IMG/VR virus record: IMGVR_UViG_3300037067_013258
Origin: an uncultured virus (IMG/VR IMGVR_UViG_3300037067_013258)
Lineage: Duplodnaviria > Heunggongvirae > Uroviricota > Caudoviricetes
Length of the DNA stretch: 64,000 nt
Direction: 5' to 3' (one strand)
Shown here: in pieces, positions 37,544 to 60,331 of the stretch
How positions within the stretch are numbered: the first letter of the stretch is position 1
Layout of the letters: the number at the start of each line of letters is the position of its first letter
Position numbers and translations under genes: made by a program
Notes under the pieces: model-generated
What the model saw: the letters and a program-made list of their open reading frames with translations, nothing else
Told to the model about the DNA's origin: nothing
Databases searched by the model: none

Positions 37544-37834
37544 ATGAATAAAAATAATGTGCCAGTGACAAATATCTGGTTTGATGGAAGTATTCTTATT
37601 TGTCGTATGATCCATGAGGATAACGGCTATGGATTATCATTAGGAAAAACTGGAATTGTACGGGAAATAAATAAACCTATTTCAGGATTAAGACATACTT
37701 CTGATACTGATCACGCAGAGCAGGTATTCAGATTGTATTTTGATAAAAAAGAATCTATCGATGCATTAATAACAGAACTAACTATATTAAGGTTAGAACA
37801 ATTTGAAAATTATACAATTGAATTTAAGGAGTAA
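37544..37834 (+). CDS. Hypothetical protein
   Basis: ORF track; RBS GGAGG. Confidence 0.6.
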   Translation: MNKNNVPVTNIWFDGSILICRMIHEDNGYGLSLGKTGIVREINKPISGLRHTSDTDHAEQVFRLYFDKKESIDALITELTILRLEQFENYTIEFKE

Positions 37835-37976
37835 CCATGAATAAGAAAACAAAAGTTAAACTTGCACCTAATTTTAAAAAAACTGTTGACGCTCTCAAAA
37901 AAACTCCTGAATATTGGATTGAAACAATTAAATTTGGAATTTCAGTTTTTTTCTTAAAATTATTTCGGAGGATAAA

Positions 37977-38423
37977 ATGAATGGTAAATCAAAACTTTTT
38001 TATAAAAAAACTATTGTCTCTTTTTTGTGGGTTGTTTCTATTGTGTTGTTTTTTATCGGCGGATATTTCTCCAATCGCACAAATCAAAGCAGAGGCGATA
38101 GCGATACAAAACAAATTGGCGCTATTGGAGCAGCAGAGAGTACGGGACTCACAGAAATTAACAGACTTAAAACTGAACTCGAAAAATCAACAAGACGAAA
38201 TATCGAGTCTGAAAAAATCATCTCTGGACTCCGAAAGGAAAATCGAGAAGTTACAAAAATTGCAGATAGCCTCCGCAGTCGGGAACTACATACAACGCAA
38301 ATGCTTGACGGGCTTATTACGGCAGACAGCCAGGAAACGGATGCTCTTGGTGCAATTAAGCGCTCTGCTCAAAACATTGAAGCAGTCTGTGAGTTTTTGG
38401 AAGACAACGGCTATAGTCGGTAG
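37977..38423 (+). CDS. N-terminal TM plus coiled-coil protein (i-spanin-like)
   Basis: Basic N-terminus, one TM segment, long coiled coil; GGAGG 5 nt upstream. Confidence 0.6.
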   Translation: MNGKSKLFYKKTIVSFLWVVSIVLFFIGGYFSNRTNQSRGDSDTKQIGAIGAAESTGLTEINRLKTELEKSTRRNIESEKIISGLRKENREVTKIADSLRSRELHTTQMLDGLITADSQETDALGAIKRSAQNIEAVCEFLEDNGYSR

Positions 38424-38466
38424 CCTGGCAGGGTTAGCGATTGGCTGGATATTGGGAGGATTGTAG
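37981..38466 (+). CDS. Signal peptide + coiled coil + C-terminal TM protein, overlapping in the +1 frame (spanin-like partner)
   Basis: KKLLSLFCGLFLLCCFLSA signal, heptads, C-terminal AIVGSLAGLAIGWILGGL; same GGAGG 9 nt upstream. Confidence 0.6.
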   Translation: MVNQNFFIKKLLSLFCGLFLLCCFLSADISPIAQIKAEAIAIQNKLALLEQQRVRDSQKLTDLKLNSKNQQDEISSLKKSSLDSERKIEKLQKLQIASAVGNYIQRKCLTGLLRQTARKRMLLVQLSALLKTLKQSVSFWKTTAIVGSLAGLAIGWILGGL

Positions 38467-39003
38467 AAATGATTTTTGAACATATAAAATGCCCTATAAA
38501 TAAATATACTTTTTCAGTAAAGCAAATCAGGGAATGGGTTGTTAAAAATTGCGAAAATTGTAACGGGAAGATATTAAATCTCTTCGCAGGATTAACAATC
38601 TTGCCTTTACTAAAAGAAGTAAGAAACGATATAGACAAAACAATGATAGCTGATTATTACATGGATGCTGTTGATTTTTTACGAATGGCAATAAATGATA
38701 AAATGATATTCGATGCTATTATCCTTGATCCACCTTACGCATATCGCAAATCAATGGAATTATATAATGGACATTTAAACAGCCGTTTTAAAATGGTTAA
38801 AGATTTAATCCCTGACGTATTAATAAAAAATGGTCGAGTTATAACACTTGGTTATCATTCGATAAGCATGGGGAAACAAAGAGGATTTTCCATAGAGGCT
38901 ATTGCACTATTTTCGCATGGTGGGGCAATTCACGACACAATTGGCACTGTGGAAGTGTATAATCATTAATTATTATCAGATATTGGGAGGATTGTAAAAA
39001 TGA
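38448..39003 (+). repeat. 25-bp direct repeats (38448-38472 and 38979-39003) flanking the MTase gene
   Basis: GATATTGGGAGGATTGTA(G/A)AAATGA, 24/25 identical. Confidence 0.9.
38469..38969 (+). CDS. DNA methyltransferase (N6-A/N4-C type)
   Basis: LNLFAG and ILDPPY. Confidence 0.8.
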   Translation: MIFEHIKCPINKYTFSVKQIREWVVKNCENCNGKILNLFAGLTILPLLKEVRNDIDKTMIADYYMDAVDFLRMAINDKMIFDAIILDPPYAYRKSMELYNGHLNSRFKMVKDLIPDVLIKNGRVITLGYHSISMGKQRGFSIEAIALFSHGGAIHDTIGTVEVYNH

Positions 39004-42341: not shown

Positions 42342-42641
42342 TTATGTTAAGGGAGGATTCTCTTTTTTTACTTTAAACCTATCCACAATAAGATCATAAC
42401 CTAATGTAGTAATGGCAAGCAATAGAAAACAGGATTTAACAGTTAACACAATAATCGCAAGTGAAAAAGTGTAGCTATTCAATTCTATTGCATAACAAAA
42501 AGCCAGAAGTAAGCAAATGATAATTTGCAAAGTAGCATATTTGCATAACCCCTTTTTATTGCTGACATTTTTAATGAACTCTATTGCGCCAACTACACCT
42601 GCACCATATATTAATAAACTACTATCAGTAAATAATTCCAT
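42342..42641 (-). CDS. Holin
   Basis: 99 aa, 3 hydrophobic segments, charged tail, next to the lysin. Confidence 0.65.
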   Translation of the reverse strand: MELFTDSSLLIYGAGVVGAIEFIKNVSNKKGLCKYATLQIIICLLLAFCYAIELNSYTFSLAIIVLTVKSCFLLLAITTLGYDLIVDRFKVKKENPPLT

Positions 42642-42643
42642 GA

Positions 42644-43267
42644 TTACACCTTCCTTTTTAATTCAAAAAATGAAGGGGTGTACACATATTTTTTATTGAA
42701 AAAATCATTCAGTGTTCCGAAACCATTATAATAACCACCTTGACCAATCATCAACTCTAATTCAGATTTAGTGTTAAACTGTGGTGACACAATTCCAACA
42801 TGACACTGGTTTGCTCCCCGCCCTAATGCAGCAACTAGTACAGGAATACCGGCATTTGCTTTTAAAATAGTGTCTTTCCAGGTTAACTCAGTGCAATTGG
42901 TTTTATCTGCTTTTGCGTTTTCATACATTTCTTTTGCAGTTGTATAACCAATATCTTTATAAACCTTGTCCAGAATTGGAAGACAGTTGTATCCCATATT
43001 ATTAAGGATATGATAAGCAACAAAAGTACACCATGTCGCTTTACTAATACCAGAAACAAGTGAAACACCATAATCACTGATTAAACTTCTTACTTCCCTA
43101 TCTTTTCCAGAATACAACAGAAATCCTGGTTGATATTCTGGTAATTTAGAAACATCTATAATGCATTTGAAAAGTGTTATCATGGGATCTTTGGGGCTGA
43201 CCCCTGATGCTTTTGCTTGTCTTAAAAATGTTTCTACATATTCATAATTCTGTGATCTTAACTCCAT
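42644..43267 (-). CDS. Putative endolysin (CHAP/NlpC-P60-like Cys-His peptidase)
   Basis: TWCTFVA...HVGIV...IGQGG; adjacent to the holin. Confidence 0.6.
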   Translation of the reverse strand: MELRSQNYEYVETFLRQAKASGVSPKDPMITLFKCIIDVSKLPEYQPGFLLYSGKDREVRSLISDYGVSLVSGISKATWCTFVAYHILNNMGYNCLPILDKVYKDIGYTTAKEMYENAKADKTNCTELTWKDTILKANAGIPVLVAALGRGANQCHVGIVSPQFNTKSELELMIGQGGYYNGFGTLNDFFNKKYVYTPSFFELKRKV

Positions 43268-43291
43268 ACAATTGTACTCCTTTATTTTTAG

Positions 43292-43723
43292 TTACAACCA
43301 ACCCTTTGCTTTCATCATAGCCTGTACAAGTAATAGTACAGCAGGTGAAGCAAGTATGCTTAAAATTATGCTGATTATTTTAGGCCATGATAGTTTTTTT
43401 GGTGTAACAAGATTTTCGATTGTTTTCATACCATCCTGGATTTTCTTTTCCAAACTTTCAAAAAATTCTTGCAATTTTGCAATTTTGCTGTCACTTTGTT
43501 TTTGTGCAGTTTCAATTGTCTCCATTTTGAATTCGAGCTCCCTGATACGTATTTCTGCTTTAGAAATTCTGTCCTCATTGCTATCAGAAGATGTGATAAT
43601 GGTATTCAGTCTTTCACCAATGAATTTGAAATGTATTTCAAGTTTTTCACTTATGTTTTCTTTGATTTCTTTTTTTATATCATTTATTGCATCATAAAAT
43701 TCTTTCATGTCCATTTTATACAT
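43292..43723 (-). CDS. Coiled-coil protein with C-terminal TM (lysis-associated)
   Basis: Heptads followed by a hydrophobic C-terminus. Confidence 0.55.
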   Translation of the reverse strand: MYKMDMKEFYDAINDIKKEIKENISEKLEIHFKFIGERLNTIITSSDSNEDRISKAEIRIRELEFKMETIETAQKQSDSKIAKLQEFFESLEKKIQDGMKTIENLVTPKKLSWPKIISIILSILASPAVLLLVQAMMKAKGWL

Positions 43724-44204
43724 CCTCTGGTTTATTTATAATGTAATTAAGCACGTAAGCACCCAAATAGAAAAAAGATATTGTAATAACATTATTTAAA
43801 GAAATGTTAAAAATTGCAAATTTTATAAAAAGCACAAAGAAAAAAACGGGCATGGTTATTAAATACACTGCTTTTTTGTTCACACTTGAACTTTTATCAA
43901 AACAAGAAAGTGATAAAAAAATAAAAATGGCAGATCCAACATCTTTCTCACCTAAAAATGTGAAAAATAATCCTGCGATTAAATATAAAATACCATGGCA
44001 AGTCCAGGATTTCATGAATAAGAAAATCACAGACATTAGCCACAGTATAATAAAAGGTGCAGTGTAAAGAATGTATGTACTTATCACCGTATTTTTCAAT
44101 ATGGCATTGTAAATATTAAATGACATAAAAATAGTGAGTAGAAAAATGTTGATTATGCCAATCAATAAGACAATTGAAATTTTAAAAGCAGGAAATTTTA
44201 TCAT
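43716..44204 (-). CDS. Multi-pass membrane protein
   Basis: About 5-6 hydrophobic segments. Confidence 0.6.
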   Translation of the reverse strand: MIKFPAFKISIVLLIGIINIFLLTIFMSFNIYNAILKNTVISTYILYTAPFIILWLMSVIFLFMKSWTCHGILYLIAGLFFTFLGEKDVGSAIFIFLSLSCFDKSSSVNKKAVYLITMPVFFFVLFIKFAIFNISLNNVITISFFYLGAYVLNYIINKPEDV

Positions 44205-44674: not shown

Positions 44675-45418
44675 TTATTTTTCCCGTTTATACTGCATAA
44701 CGGCAGTCATCACAGGAGTACTGACACCCATTAGTTTTGCAAAGGTGTTAAAAGCAGGTATGTCTTTATCTAGACAAACTGATTTCCATCCTGGAGAGTC
44801 ATCATAAACAAAAGTATGTGACCTTGGAGCTCTAGGATCTTTTAAAAAAGCTTCTCTAACTTTGTGATAATCAATACCAAAAGCTTTTGCAACATTTGCA
44901 AATTCATTACAGAATGAAACCATCATTCCTAAATAACAATTTTCCATGTACTTTGCAAGCTCAGCTGTTTTTGCATCTGTATAATGAATATCAAATAGAG
45001 CAGAATGTTTTTTTATAAACACATTGGCAACCACATGACAATCTTTATCGTCACCACCAAGGGTGATAAAATTAAAATTGACTGTTAGATTGTGTATTGT
45101 TTCCCCGTAATATTCAGGAGAGAATACAATCCGCTTTTTATACTTTTCTTTTAATGCATCTGTGGTGCCGGGTGGAATAGTTGACCGTATACAAAAAACA
45201 TCAACATTTTCAGTTTCTTTGATCACACTTTCAACTATTGATGTGTTGCAAGTTCCATCCTCATTTTTTGGAGTTGGCACACAAACAAAAGCTACATCAT
45301 AATGCTTTCCAGGCTTTCTGCACAGCCCTTTTAATGGATCATGCACATCTGTATTAGGAAATTCTTTCAACATATTGCTTCCAACTACACCACAACCAAT
45401 AATTAAAATATTTTCCAT
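44675..45418 (-). CDS. UDP-glucose/GDP-mannose dehydrogenase family protein (short form)
   Basis: IIGCGVVG, FVCVPTP, RSTIPPGTT, FSPE, AELAKYMEN, CLDKD. Confidence 0.85.
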   Translation of the reverse strand: MENILIIGCGVVGSNMLKEFPNTDVHDPLKGLCRKPGKHYDVAFVCVPTPKNEDGTCNTSIVESVIKETENVDVFCIRSTIPPGTTDALKEKYKKRIVFSPEYYGETIHNLTVNFNFITLGGDDKDCHVVANVFIKKHSALFDIHYTDAKTAELAKYMENCYLGMMVSFCNEFANVAKAFGIDYHKVREAFLKDPRAPRSHTFVYDDSPGWKSVCLDKDIPAFNTFAKLMGVSTPVMTAVMQYKREK

Positions 45419-45505
45419 AAAAAATCCTTTCAATAATGATAATTAATCATTATTATAATTGATGTCAATACTAATAATAAAACCAGCAATTAAAAACAAG
45501 TTTCA

Positions 45506-55794: not shown

Positions 55795-56157
55795 TTACAT
55801 ATTACTAATTGCCACATTGGGCATTAAAAAAACCATTTCTTTACTTATCGTTAAATCATCACTCGTAACTACTATGTCAACATAGTCATCTACCATCAAC
55901 TTGTTTGAATTACCCCTGGATGTTATCGTTTCCCAGTTATTCAATAAATTCATTACTTCGATTTCCAGATAGTCATCAAGCCAGTCAATTTGTAAGCTCT
56001 GGAAGTGTGCAATAATTCTAAACAGTATTCCCCGGCTAACAGGATCAGGCTCTTGCTTAATCACTACATATGGTGGCTGGAATTGTAAACCAGAACCAAA
56101 ATAAGTAACATTTTTTACTGTTCCAGTTTTCAACCTCTCTTCAATTTTAGTCAGCAT
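55795..56157 (-). CDS. Tail completion/terminator protein
   Basis: PPYVVI motif; synteny. Confidence 0.55.
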   Translation of the reverse strand: MLTKIEERLKTGTVKNVTYFGSGLQFQPPYVVIKQEPDPVSRGILFRIIAHFQSLQIDWLDDYLEIEVMNLLNNWETITSRGNSNKLMVDDYVDIVVTSDDLTISKEMVFLMPNVAISNM

Positions 56158-56512
56158 ACATTTTTCTCACATCTGCTAAAAAGCGTCCTGCATAATGTTG
56201 CACAATTGGCCGTAATGATTCATGTTTTCGGTCATTTGCCAATTCCAGATAAACACCATAGTAAACACCATGTGCCAAAAACCAACCAACAGACCTCCCA
56301 TCCCTGAATGCGTCAGAAAACACCCTTGCTGCCGCCTGTGCTGTTTGGTTATCCCAAAAATTACCAAAAGAATGTGGTGCCATTCTTTGCTGCATTTGAA
56401 AATTAAGCAAAGCCATTGCTGCATATTGCAAAGATATTCCATAAATCTGCGCCCGGCGTTTTTCATAAATACTCCGTACCCGCCTTTTCACTTTTTCCAC
56501 GTCTGGTTTCAT
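56147..56512 (-). CDS. HK97 gp10-like neck protein
   Basis: WDNQT...LAHGVYYGVYLE. Confidence 0.7.
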   Translation of the reverse strand: MKPDVEKVKRRVRSIYEKRRAQIYGISLQYAAMALLNFQMQQRMAPHSFGNFWDNQTAQAAARVFSDAFRDGRSVGWFLAHGVYYGVYLELANDRKHESLRPIVQHYAGRFLADVRKMYAD

Positions 56513-57633: not shown

Positions 57634-58179
57634 TTACTCCACCCTATAGAACCAGCACCGGTTCTCACCTAATACAATTTTTTTACCAAACATTTCATCA
57701 ACCGCTTTCTTTACTTCACCCTGATCTGGATGTGCATAGTCATGACCACTTATCCAGCCTCCCTTTTTCACTTTTGGCAGCCAGGCAACTATGTCATGCT
57801 TGCATCCTGCATATGAATGATCAGCATCAATGAACACCAGGTCAAGGGAGCCATCCGGGATATTCTTTGCCATTTCAGCACTTTCACCCCGGAGAATCAT
57901 GCACCGCTTTTTATACTGCCCTGCAATTGCTTTACAATTTGCATAAGTGCGGTCAAAGTAATCCTGTGCTTTTACCACAATAGAAGCGTCACTTTTTGCA
58001 TAGCTGCTTTCTACCGGAGGTTTTTGCCACCAATCAACCATATACAATATGAGCCCTGGATGTTTAATCAATAATTGCTTTGACAGTTTTCCATTATCAA
58101 CACCAATTTCAGCAATTACCGGTGCTTTAATGTCCTTTACTCTTTTAAGTATTTCGTCCCACCGTTTTAATCCACTCAT
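57634..58179 (-). CDS. Class I SAM-dependent methyltransferase (Methyltransf_24-like)
   Basis: AEIGVDNG, MVD, DLVFIDADHSY, GGWISGHDY. Confidence 0.88.
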   Translation of the reverse strand: MSGLKRWDEILKRVKDIKAPVIAEIGVDNGKLSKQLLIKHPGLILYMVDWWQKPPVESSYAKSDASIVVKAQDYFDRTYANCKAIAGQYKKRCMILRGESAEMAKNIPDGSLDLVFIDADHSYAGCKHDIVAWLPKVKKGGWISGHDYAHPDQGEVKKAVDEMFGKKIVLGENRCWFYRVE

Positions 58180-59645
58180 TTTCTTAAACCTACCTTTTCA
58201 ATTATCGCATACTCCACTGTCTGTGGTTTTCTTCCGATACTTTTCGGCTTTGTAGCCTGTAAAAATTGATACACCTGATATTTGTTGTCACTCCATTGCA
58301 TAATATAATCCGGTAATACTTTTCTGGTAAAATGAAAGGGGTCTGTGGGTGTTGCCTTTGATACCTCATGCTGTATAGTGTATTCTATAATTAAACGCCC
58401 TTTAGGTGACAATTGCTTAAGCCAGATTGGTATTGTTTCCATTGGATTGTATACATGGTCAAGGCAATTTGTAAAAACCACATCCATCCTGCCTATCCAG
58501 TCAGGATTGACTTTATTAAAGTCCCATATAACTGTATGAGGGATATCCTTTAAATCAGGGCATATTTCAGTACCAAAGGCAGCACAGCCTTTAAGATATT
58601 TTCTAAACCATTTTTGCTCATCACCATTACGGGAGCCATGCACTAAAATAGTTTTTACATCGGGATTCAGACTTTTTATCACTCCACAAAGATATTTAAT
58701 ATTCTCTTCCAGTTCCCATGTGGACTTTAAAGACGCTTTTTGTTTTGTGGCATTAATCTGTGCTTCCAGGTAAGCCCCATAACCGCCTGCATAATGATAA
58801 AGATTTTCGTGCATTTCTCTTTCCTGAAGAGTAGAATTTTTAACTTTTCCAAACTTTTTGGGGTAGTTGATGATTTCTTTTTTAGTTATGCCTGCCAATG
58901 CTTCATACTTTTTCCATAACGCATAACACTTTTCCGTTTCTTTTGAAGTACGATCGTATAAACAAGCTTGTCGTAATTCTGATTTAATGTGAATGATGTA
59001 CGCATCCTCATTAACCATAGGCCAGTATCCCCGGCAAAGATTGTAAATTGAACAGGGGATGTTCAACACGTGTGCTTGTTTATCGTTATGGTTTTCTTTA
59101 TCAAAATAAAACCTGTCTTTAAATTCATTTATTACAGCACCAAAGGCCGCCTGATTCATGCCTGCATATTTCTTTATGTACTTTGCATGGTAGGCATGAT
59201 TTTTAAACATTTTCATATTTACATCTGCCCAAAGTTTCATGAAATCTTTTGCTTTTTGTGTGTTCTTTACAAACACCACACCGCCATTATAAGGCAGACT
59301 GCCAATGCTGTGTTTTGTGACAGCAACATCAAAGCTTTTATTAAATACAGACGACAGGTCTTTTAAAACAAGCATGTCACAATCCATAAATACAATATAA
59401 TCATTTGGGTGCTGCTCCATAACATTTACCCAATCATTTATTTTAACAGTGTTCGATATCATGCATCTTTTTGGGGTGCCGTGTGTATCGGGTGCAGGAC
59501 GTTTATTCAGTATCACCTTTGCATTAGGATTGTTTGCTTTTGCACTACATTCCCATACCTGAGAAAGTACTGCATAAGCATTTGATTCTCTAAAATCAAA
59601 AACATCTGCAAATAAAATAACTTCTGGTTTCTTTTCTTCAGCCAT
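58176..59645 (-). CDS. GT-A glycosyltransferase fused to a methyltransferase-like domain
   Basis: FMDCDML (DxD), YNGGVVF, NQAA, IIHIK; C-terminal LVHGSRNG...DVVFTNCLDH...PKGRLIIE. Confidence 0.8.
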   Translation of the reverse strand: MAEEKKPEVILFADVFDFRESNAYAVLSQVWECSAKANNPNAKVILNKRPAPDTHGTPKRCMISNTVKINDWVNVMEQHPNDYIVFMDCDMLVLKDLSSVFNKSFDVAVTKHSIGSLPYNGGVVFVKNTQKAKDFMKLWADVNMKMFKNHAYHAKYIKKYAGMNQAAFGAVINEFKDRFYFDKENHNDKQAHVLNIPCSIYNLCRGYWPMVNEDAYIIHIKSELRQACLYDRTSKETEKCYALWKKYEALAGITKKEIINYPKKFGKVKNSTLQEREMHENLYHYAGGYGAYLEAQINATKQKASLKSTWELEENIKYLCGVIKSLNPDVKTILVHGSRNGDEQKWFRKYLKGCAAFGTEICPDLKDIPHTVIWDFNKVNPDWIGRMDVVFTNCLDHVYNPMETIPIWLKQLSPKGRLIIEYTIQHEVSKATPTDPFHFTRKVLPDYIMQWSDNKYQVYQFLQATKPKSIGRKPQTVEYAIIEKVGLRK

Positions 59646-60331
59646 TACACACATCCTTTGAAATCATAATAATACTGTTCACCTTCGATAAAATTTATCT
59701 TGCCGCCAAGGTAACGAAAAATAGCGGTGCGTGAATGTTTGGGATGTTCAATAAATTCAAATACCTTTTTATTTGCATTCATCAAATCCCTTTGATACAC
59801 CCTGGATTTATAATCATGAAAATCTTCATAAAAATAAAAATCCATAAAAAAAATTTTAGTCAATCCTGGTATAAAATAGGGTTGAAACATTTTAAGGATA
59901 CAGTCTGTTATGCCTTTATCAATCCCGATATCGTCAATCAATAATTGTACAGGTTCCCAAATATATGCAAAATCCTTTATGTTCTTTTTAAAATAAACAA
60001 TATTTGCACCCGCATCCATAAAAGGCTGTAGGTTTTTTACAAAAGACGCCTGCAAATCTGTTGTTTCAACGTGTCTGCTTTTCAACCAAACCCTGTATTT
60101 TTCTTCGATTTCCCATTTATCAATGGCATATATCCTTGATGCTTTATTTCCAGCATCAATCAAGCCACGTGATAAAAAAGCAGTGGTGGAACCAAGGAAA
60201 GGAGCAATGTCTACTATGGCATTTCCTTGTTTAACTTCTTTAGCAGCGTTAAAAAGAAAACCCTTTATCTTACGCCCACCGTTTCCCATTTCTGGTATTT
60301 TGTTTGCAAGTATTTTTATGTCTTCCATCAT
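59645..60331 (-). CDS. Class I SAM-dependent methyltransferase-like protein
   Basis: IVDIAPFLGSTT, YAID, LLIDD; resembles the neighbouring gene. Confidence 0.7.
   Translation of the reverse strand: MMEDIKILANKIPEMGNGGRKIKGFLFNAAKEVKQGNAIVDIAPFLGSTTAFLSRGLIDAGNKASRIYAIDKWEIEEKYRVWLKSRHVETTDLQASFVKNLQPFMDAGANIVYFKKNIKDFAYIWEPVQLLIDDIGIDKGITDCILKMFQPYFIPGLTKIFFMDFYFYEDFHDYKSRVYQRDLMNANKKVFEFIEHPKHSRTAIFRYLGGKINFIEGEQYYYDFKGCV

Follow-up and report, generated by a model that had tools for sequence, protein, structure and literature searches.

We describe here a pair of membrane-protein genes, named A and B in the following, that are read in two different frames from almost the same DNA of an uncultured tailed phage (IMG/VR record IMGVR_UViG_3300037067_013258). 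The window that was analysed comprises 64 kb of the approximately 72-kb contig of this phage. Both frames are free of stop codons over their full length, and this openness is non-random. It is practically certain that A is a gene, and B is probably one as well and translated. We favour the reading that A and B form a real dual-coding pair, which would most likely be a lipoprotein-free, spanin-like module spanning the cell envelope and acting in the last step of lysis. The lysis role draws on analogy with pairs of like layout that follow endolysin genes in other uncultured phages; the statement as a whole is tentative, and we give it somewhat less than an even chance.

The initial annotation had described a GGAGG-ataaa-ATG-a-ATG sequence opening two open reading frames (ORFs) of 148 and 161 amino acids (aa) that overlap for 443 nucleotides (nt). 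Re-reading of coordinates and sequence confirmed this exactly (Table 1). A single base separates the ATG of A from the ATG of B, the starts lie 4 nt apart in different frames, and the common stretch reaches from 37981 to 38423. Thus B begins at 0.009 of the length of A, 99% of A is shared, and B is the longer of the two. The Shine-Dalgarno-like GGAGG would be the ribosome-binding site common to both. Tandem repeats or self-similarity between A and B were considered as a cause of the overlap and rejected, because the DNA is free of tandem repeats and A does not resemble B.

The 56 other genes of the window show how often such a frame is found open. In these, stop codons occur at a frequency of 0.070 per +1 codon (7%) and at 11% of the +2 codons, and the longest stop-free +1 run has 81 codons. 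When one protein was held fixed and its codons were redrawn from the usage of the window, the other frame was open in none of 20000 trials, both from A to B and from B to A, with about 10–11 stops expected. Upon shuffling the codons of A, B stayed open in 0.018–0.030 of the trials; the reverse shuffling of B left A open in 0.0007–0.0017. Leu, Ile and Val are encoded in A by NTA codons (TTA, CTA, ATA, GTA) in 1 of 32 cases, compared to 1158 of 3422 (34%) elsewhere (Fisher p 4e-5), and the lowest NTA share of any other window gene is 17%. Since NTA codons make +1 stops, their avoidance in A keeps the frame of B open. Given the 81-codon maximum elsewhere, the failure of all synonymous resamples and the avoidance of NTA, the two stop-free frames noted earlier are more than chance.

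Across everything searched a sole homologue was found, L001, a metagenome contig of 1198 nt. It retains both ORFs at full length (148 and 161 codons exactly), although the overlap has accumulated 36 substitutions. Conservation of both frames in homologues, which the initial annotation had named as a way to check its proposal, is thus observed in this one case. Between window and L001, A is 90% and B 86% identical. In the overlap 36 of 443 sites differ, against 2 substitutions and one 1-nt indel in approximately 372 nt upstream; this corresponds to 8% versus about 0.5% of sites, or an approximately 16-fold faster divergence of A/B (window 37600–38466, L001 1–861). The B-only tail shows 2 differences up to 38456, and similarity stops within the last codons of B. 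Located 3' of B, L001 has a different gene with a CxxxCxxC motif, the ATG of which overlaps the TGA of the L001 B; we take this motif to be radical-SAM-like. The high divergence reflects either a recombination mosaic with its junction at the end of B or fast evolution of a single locus. A mosaic explains it equally well, because the downstream gene is entirely different in L001. At this locus, the contigs of four public sequencing runs hold the window and L001 haplotypes only.

Compared to L001, A carries 15 synonymous and 15 non-synonymous codon changes. In simulations without selection on A (B-only or neutral models), at least 15 synonymous changes were reached in ≤0.5% of runs. Since such a number is so rare without selection, A is under purifying selection. 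For B, 10 synonymous and 19 replacement changes were counted inside the overlap, where A-only and neutral models predict 2.8–7.6 synonymous ones. The A-only models were calibrated to the counts of A itself, with or without favouring conservative replacements. In these, B remained open in 0.12–0.20 of runs, at least 10 synonymous B codons were found in 0.02–0.14, and both together in 0.006–0.03. The excess of synonymous changes lends modest support to B as a gene.

Protein A has one region of hydrophobic 19-mers (residues 7–33, Kyte-Doolittle up to 2.34) and a heptad contrast of z=3.0, which 1 of 300 shuffled sequences reached. These values agree with the N-terminal transmembrane (TM) segment plus coiled coil that A had been assigned before. 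AlphaFold2, based on a two-sequence alignment, yielded a mean predicted local distance difference test score (pLDDT) of 83, with helices at residues 5–35 (transmembrane) and 44–143 (one long helix) that are joined by a short linker. This is the architecture of an i-spanin, in which an N-terminal TM is followed by a helical or coiled-coil periplasmic domain. The family matches of A are weak (phrog_1152, Rz-like spanin, E 0.02; phrog_8545, Sie-like, E 0.009; phrog_4980, Sie-like, E 0.14), and against Pfam nothing was above the cut-off. In the protein collection A matches itself and P0003 only, and gene callers call A.

Protein B has two hydrophobic 19-mer regions, one at residues 5–35, after two lysines, and one at 143–161 (mean Kyte-Doolittle 1.78). 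Its N-terminus resembles a signal peptide or anchor and holds three Cys, the middle is basic, Leu/Lys/Gln-rich and helical-looking, and the C-terminus is Gly-rich. A comparably hydrophobic terminal 19-mer occurs in 26 of the 441 six-frame ORF fragments of the window, which is the baseline for the C-terminus of B. Of the segments proposed by the initial annotation, the hydrophobic Cys-bearing N-terminus and the hydrophobic C-terminus stand, but by a crude test the coiled coil does not, the heptad z being about 0. The residues in front of Cys16, Cys22 and Cys23 are SLF, FLL and LLC, respectively, and none of the three Cys is in a lipobox. Hence, B lacks the lipoprotein signal of o-spanins and u-spanins and, judged by its sequence, is not a lipoprotein; the C-terminal transmembrane domain of u-spanins has its counterpart in residues 143–161. 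We regard B as a probable gene because its frame is kept open, it exceeds the A-only model in synonymous changes and its hydrophobic C-terminus lies beyond the stop of A.

Neither A nor B has significant sequence homology to any spanin, the match of A to phrog_1152 being the best; B matched no PHROG spanin family and nothing above the cut-off in Pfam. No relatives of the two were found in viral_contigs, genome_contigs or cultured phages (blastn, tblastn), a PDB sequence search gave nothing relevant, and synteny searches that started from the DUF3560 gene and from the 96-aa gene upstream were negative. In the ESM Atlas the nearest clusters consist of hypotheticals without a name (A 0.91; B 0.93, sharing 210 features, at a recognition below usual); they serve as a lead only.

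The data presented so far bear on a simpler explanation: A would be the sole gene, coding for a membrane-anchored coiled-coil protein, and B an untranslated or non-functional frame that is stop-free by accident. We hold this to be less likely, but it is a serious rival with several points in its favour. Gene callers take A only, in the window as well as in the L001 contig. Codon usage is typical in A and not in B, B is without heptads and relatives, and its hydrophobic N-terminus and polar middle may echo the composition of A. Moreover, about 2–3% of the codon shuffles of A leave B open, in a window that comprises about 60 genes, and with one homologue B is open by chance in 12–20% of the A-only simulations. 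Against these stands that the codon set of A is abnormal exactly so as to remove +1 stops, to an extent which no synonymous resample reproduced. The joint p of 0.006–0.03 for the synonymous excess of B, and its hydrophobic C-terminus outside A, point in the same direction. Furthermore, the ATG of B is at the first possible codon, 9 nt from GGAGG.

Pairs of the same layout exist in other viral contigs. We retrieved 80 viral loci via the neighbouring methyltransferase and scanned them for same-strand ORF pairs, with a filter that required both ORFs to have at least 80 aa and a hydrophobic N-terminus, to overlap by at least 240 nt and to start within 45 nt of each other. Applied to the window and 82 loci, this filter matched the window pair, L001 and L052/L082 only. 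A search with the B-type protein of L052 led to further pairs in L083 and in L084 with its close relatives L086 and L087. The resulting analogue set consists of five distinct contigs (L052/L082, L083, L084/L085, L086, L087), which represent three sequence types. Both frames are open in all five; B is always in the +1 frame, starts 4–10 nt after A and ends beyond the stop of A. The A-type proteins have an N-terminal TM and a helix. The B-type proteins begin with a Cys-bearing signal-like segment, are polar in the middle and end in a hydrophobic segment that is encoded past the stop of A; no lipobox is conserved among them, and a single Shine-Dalgarno region is common to both starts. Among the analogues, identity drops to 22% for A and 31% for B, and the indels of the two correspond. 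In L052, for instance, GTG-A-ATG is the start of two proteins: one of 135 aa, with N-terminal TM and helix, and one of 178 aa, with a signal-like, Cys-containing N-terminus, a helical middle and a Gly-rich hydrophobic C-terminus with a final Phe. Here gene callers pick the B-type frame (P0004), which, like the recurrence of the layout in five other contigs, argues against an accidental B frame in the window.

The genomic position of these pairs is informative as well. All three sequence types follow peptidoglycan hydrolase genes, the products of which belong to Amidase_3 (9e-52), Glucosaminidase with an N-terminal anchor (4.8e-24) and VgrG3-like C (6e-30). The L052 pair is located downstream of an Amidase_3 endolysin (Pfam 9e-52; PHROG endolysin 2e-58), with one 85-aa ORF in between. 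Heptad patterns were found in six of six analogue proteins tested (z 2.4–8.7), and the A-type protein of L052 weakly matches three Rz-like spanin PHROGs (E 6e-4 to 3e-3). The Cys near the signal end is not conserved among the B-type proteins, which therefore are not generally lipoproteins. For the analogue B family no relatives were found in genome_contigs; against cultured phages the L052 B had no match and the L052 A only partial matches to hypothetical proteins (E 0.2–0.7). Co-initiated two-frame pairs of membrane-anchored helical proteins are thus established as real and as conserved where spanin genes usually lie. Because the same layout adjoins endolysin-type genes in five other viral contigs, it is reasonable to speak of a spanin-like pair in the window, too.

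Three further observations were made in these contigs. The two-frame pair ends the lysis region in all three types (L052 2049–4931; L083 1356–3453; L084 1838–3468). In L052 a methyltransferase gene homologous to that of the window is flanked by a holin-like gene and the amidase gene. The C-termini of the B-type proteins are Gly-rich alternating segments with a terminal Phe in L052 and L083 and a plain TM helix in L084–87; the former are, we presume, reminiscent of outer-membrane beta-signals.

Does the window pair belong with these analogues? It shares their layout, with a TM-bearing A-type protein and a +1 B-type frame which starts within 10 nt and has its hydrophobic end past the stop of A. 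In an hhalign comparison B matched the analogue B family with a probability of 67% (E 5e-5, 78 columns), and the profile of this family ranks the window locus first and second among the 441 six-frame ORF fragments (E 0.0045 and 0.012). In single-comparison BLASTP with the AT-rich L084 pair, B of the window reached E 0.021 and A, in a collinear alignment of 145 residues, E 0.047. Sequence homology of the window pair to the analogue pairs is hinted at but not demonstrable.

For comparison with known spanins we refer to the survey by Kongari et al. 2018 (PMC6139136). According to this survey, two-component spanins consist of an inner-membrane protein and an outer-membrane lipoprotein, their genes are embedded, overlapped or separated, and the o-spanin lipobox has the consensus [LVI][ASTVI][GAS]C. 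Its Additional file 5 includes 178 embedded o-spanins. Not one of them begins within the first tenth of the i-spanin gene, and in 119 the start is at 0.4–0.5 of the length (L) of that gene; in the overlapped pairs the shared part amounts to at most 0.7 of the i-spanin. With 0.009 L and 99% of A, the geometry of A/B has no counterpart among the embedded or the overlapped cases of that file. As in the embedded spanins (lambda Rz/Rz1, T7 18.5/18.7), the second gene is in the +1 frame within the gene of an N-terminal-TM helical inner-membrane protein, both products are envelope proteins and the second frame is overlooked by gene finders. In contrast to these, B is longer than A, runs past its end, has no lipobox but a C-terminal hydrophobic anchor and does not look proline-rich or unstructured; furthermore, the pair is outside the lysis cassette. 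The overlapped spanins P2 LysB/LysC and LambdaSo SO_2972a/b have, like B, a +1 second gene reaching past the first stop. However, according to the LambdaSo study (bioRxiv 10.1101/2024.01.23.576932), Rz1 of this phage starts at position 340 with its own Shine-Dalgarno sequence and a cleaved lipoprotein signal, whereas B starts 4 nt after A, would use the Shine-Dalgarno sequence of A and has no lipobox; the pair called "extensively nested" there is of the usual overlapped type, its Rz1 being a lipoprotein.

Two other types of spanin described in the survey (PMC6139136) resemble the pair in single features. The u-spanin T1 gp11 has the outline of B, a Cys-bearing N-terminal secretion signal and a C-terminal transmembrane segment, but B lacks the lipobox, shares its DNA with a second membrane protein and has no sequence similarity. 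The spanin genes pseT.3/pseT.2 of T4 lie away from holin and endolysin and are a precedent for spanin genes far from other lysis genes; unlike A and B they are separate and non-overlapping and include a lipoprotein o-spanin. In the literature within reach, from which subscription journals were mostly missing, we found neither a description of a co-initiated full-length two-frame spanin-like pair nor a paper tying spanins to Negativicutes phages. The window pair is best read as a geometric, lipobox-less variant of the two-component spanin idea, with its lysis role assigned by analogy.

The following mode of action can be envisaged. One mRNA segment with one GGAGG and two ATGs 4 nt apart would initiate translation in different frames. 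A would sit in the inner membrane as a type II protein whose long helix extends into the periplasm. B would start with a signal or anchor segment, continue as a polar helix and end in a hydrophobic anchor, part of which is coded past the stop of A. Together, the two may span the envelope as a spanin-like module without lipoprotein and act at the final step of lysis. In this scheme we infer the translation of B, the binding between A and B, the topology of both and the function in lysis.

Table 1. Location of the A/B pair and of other features in the 64-kb window
Feature	Coordinates	Strand	Remarks
Replication module	1–32.3 kb	minus	DNA polymerase, helicases, primase, clamp loader, thymidylate synthase, UvsX-like recombinase
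Small-gene block	33.3–42.2 kb	plus	Including ExoX-like protein, DUF3560, YopX, DNA methyltransferase, pyrophosphatase
Upstream 47-codon ORF	37837..37980	+	TGA stop overlaps the ATG of A (ATGA) and abuts the ATG of B; uncertain gene
Shine-Dalgarno-like GGAGG	37967..37971	+	5 nt (ATAAA) before start of A, 9 nt before start of B; identical in L001
Gene A, 148 aa	37977..38423	+	ATG 37977–37979, TAG 38421–38423; putative type II membrane protein with the layout of an i-spanin
Gene B (probable), 161 aa	37981..38466	+	ATG 37981–37983, TAG 38464–38466; +1 frame of A
B-only tail	38424..38466	+	Past the stop of A; encodes most of the hydrophobic AIVGSLAGLAIGWILGGL, B residues 144–161
DNA methyltransferase gene	38469..38969	+	phrog_11619, E 4e-29; same operon as A/B
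Structural block	42.3–64 kb	minus	Tape measure, tail fibre; at the block end four membrane/unknown proteins with the look of a lysis region
Candidate lysis region	42342..44204	-	End of late operon; assigned by position and membrane features only

The pair sits in the middle of the plus-strand block, its neighbours being small unknown genes and the methyltransferase (Table 1). Here A/B share an early/middle operon with the methyltransferase. The methyltransferase gene begins 3 nt past the stop of B, and its GGGAGG falls within the last codons of B. In a promoter and terminator scan, no terminator-like site was found on the + strand between B and the methyltransferase gene, nor anything else informative. 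Translational coupling of A/B with the upstream 47-codon ORF is possible. The counterpart of this ORF in L001 (233–352) has 39 aa, its frame being moved by a 1-nt deletion in an A-run; because of this shift, the ORF may be no gene or the L001 contig may be erroneous. No tRNA genes were found in the window.

The candidate lysis region codes for a 99-aa membrane protein, a 207-aa protein, a 143-aa coiled-coil protein with C-terminal TM and a 162-aa multi-TM protein, none of which matched a Pfam or PHROG family at the thresholds used or a phage in tblastn. A role of this block in lysis is suggested by its position and membrane features. It contains no recognisable spanin, and a scan of the whole window for ORFs with a canonical lipobox gave 1 match, not B, which is antisense in the replication block and thus in an implausible place. 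The earlier placement of the pair at about 4 kb from the putative lysis genes and on the opposite strand proved right, the candidate region being on the minus strand.

Several other loci of the window deserve mention. The 207-aa protein (42644–43267, -), beside the small multi-TM protein, has a Cys...His arrangement; from its sequence it is possibly a cysteine peptidase (CHAP/NlpC-like) and a novel endolysin. A coiled-coil protein with C-terminal TM is found upstream of lysin/holin-like genes both in the window (43292–43723, -) and in L052 (2049–2570), but the 143-aa protein of the window and its 173-aa counterpart have no significant similarity (BLASTP E 0.044). Same-strand ORFs overlap at 56147–56512 (121 aa) and 56176–56466 (96 aa) (-), upstream of the tape measure gene and separated from it by a few genes; this could be a tail-chaperone frameshift arrangement or due to chance. 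Sugar-modifying genes lie inside the structural block (44675–45433 and 57634–59654, -) and code for a UDP-glucose dehydrogenase-like protein, a methyltransferase and a nucleotide-diphospho-sugar transferase.

The position in the early/middle operon suggests a second alternative, in which both proteins are real but do not serve in lysis. They would have an early or middle envelope function, for example superinfection exclusion or another change of the host membrane, and be expressed with the methyltransferase and replication-associated genes. The company of ExoX-like, DUF3560, YopX, methyltransferase and pyrophosphatase genes and the distance to the candidate lysis genes agree with this view. 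So do the matches of A to the Sie-like phrog_8545 and phrog_4980, which are weak like that to the Rz-like spanin, and the 16-fold faster divergence of A/B, as expected in a conflict between phages or between phage and host. On the other hand, all family matches of A are far below significance, the only layout analogues found directly follow endolysin-type genes, and the divergence may equally come from a recombination mosaic, the downstream gene of L001 being wholly different. We consider an early envelope function less probable, yet a serious rival. A third alternative, B as the sole gene and A as an accidental frame, has in its favour that the B-type frame of L052 is the one in the protein collection, and that B exceeds A in length and directly adjoins the next gene. 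It is hardly credible: B-only or neutral simulations reach the 15 synonymous changes of A in ≤0.5% of runs, the codon usage of A is typical of the genome, A has a heptad pattern and a confident helix prediction, and only 0.07–0.17% of B codon shuffles leave A open.

Returning to the reading as a spanin-like pair, a number of observations weigh against it and have to be set beside the evidence given above. Some concern B as a protein. Its codon score of -0.005 is above all +1 frames of the 56 genes (maximum -0.277) but under every real window gene (minimum 0.191), whereas the score of A, 0.23, is inside the range of window genes. The heptad z of B is about 0, with 145 of 300 shuffles as high in this crude test, and that of the L001 B is 0.4, whereas heptads occur in both proteins of every analogue tested and in A of the window. 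The hydrophobicity of its N-terminus could echo the T-rich transmembrane codons of A. Of its 161 residues, 22 are replaced between window and L001, in part radically (L to E, I to K, V to Q). Among 296 candidates in the protein collection none passed as a relative of B, although such frames are rarely called as genes, and a HMMER profile of B had 0 matches in 1.84 billion representatives. The selection tests rest on one sequence pair, window and L001, and on a simple mutation model. Others concern the assignment to spanins. The Sie-like PHROG match of A (E 0.009) is as good as its spanin match (E 0.02). With the analogue A family A reached an hhalign probability of 33% only, and the profile of this family ranks the window locus third, with E 0.17. 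The pair does not follow a hydrolase gene, nor does it adjoin the candidate lysin; it sits among replication and modification genes on the other strand. Finally, neither genome_contigs nor cultured phages contained relatives that would point to a host, and a host with an outer membrane is a presumption.

Of the co-initiated spanin-like pair proposed in the initial annotation, the geometry, the two frames kept open and the layout beside endolysin-type genes in five contigs thus speak for the proposal, whereas the lipobox, the heptads of B and the position in a lysis cassette are missing. Since B is without lipobox and the pair belongs to an early/middle operon, at a distance of about 4 kb to the candidate lysis genes, a spanin-like role is plausible but unproven. 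The claim for this locus rests on two haplotypes and analogy and is a lead, not a settled case.

If both frames are translated, nearly each base of a gene of about 440 nt is read twice from one ribosome-binding site, an overlap far above that of lambda Rz/Rz1, and both products would be envelope proteins. This would be a compact natural case for writing two helical proteins on one sequence and for the choice of the ribosome between starts 4 nt apart. It also bears on the phages of Gram-negative hosts in which no spanin is recognisable, 91 out of 677 in the survey (PMC6139136), as lipobox searches and gene finders that suppress overlaps are blind to such pairs. More speculatively, and with doubts on our own side, the pairs may represent a recurrent, unpublished design: several unrelated lineages would write both subunits of a lipoprotein-free spanin-like system on the same 400–450 nt behind one ribosome-binding site, and in the phage studied here the pair would have moved from the lysis cassette to an early/middle operon, its second subunit having lost the coiled-coil pattern. 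Were this true, the stoichiometry and the co-evolution of both helices would be locked into one piece of DNA.

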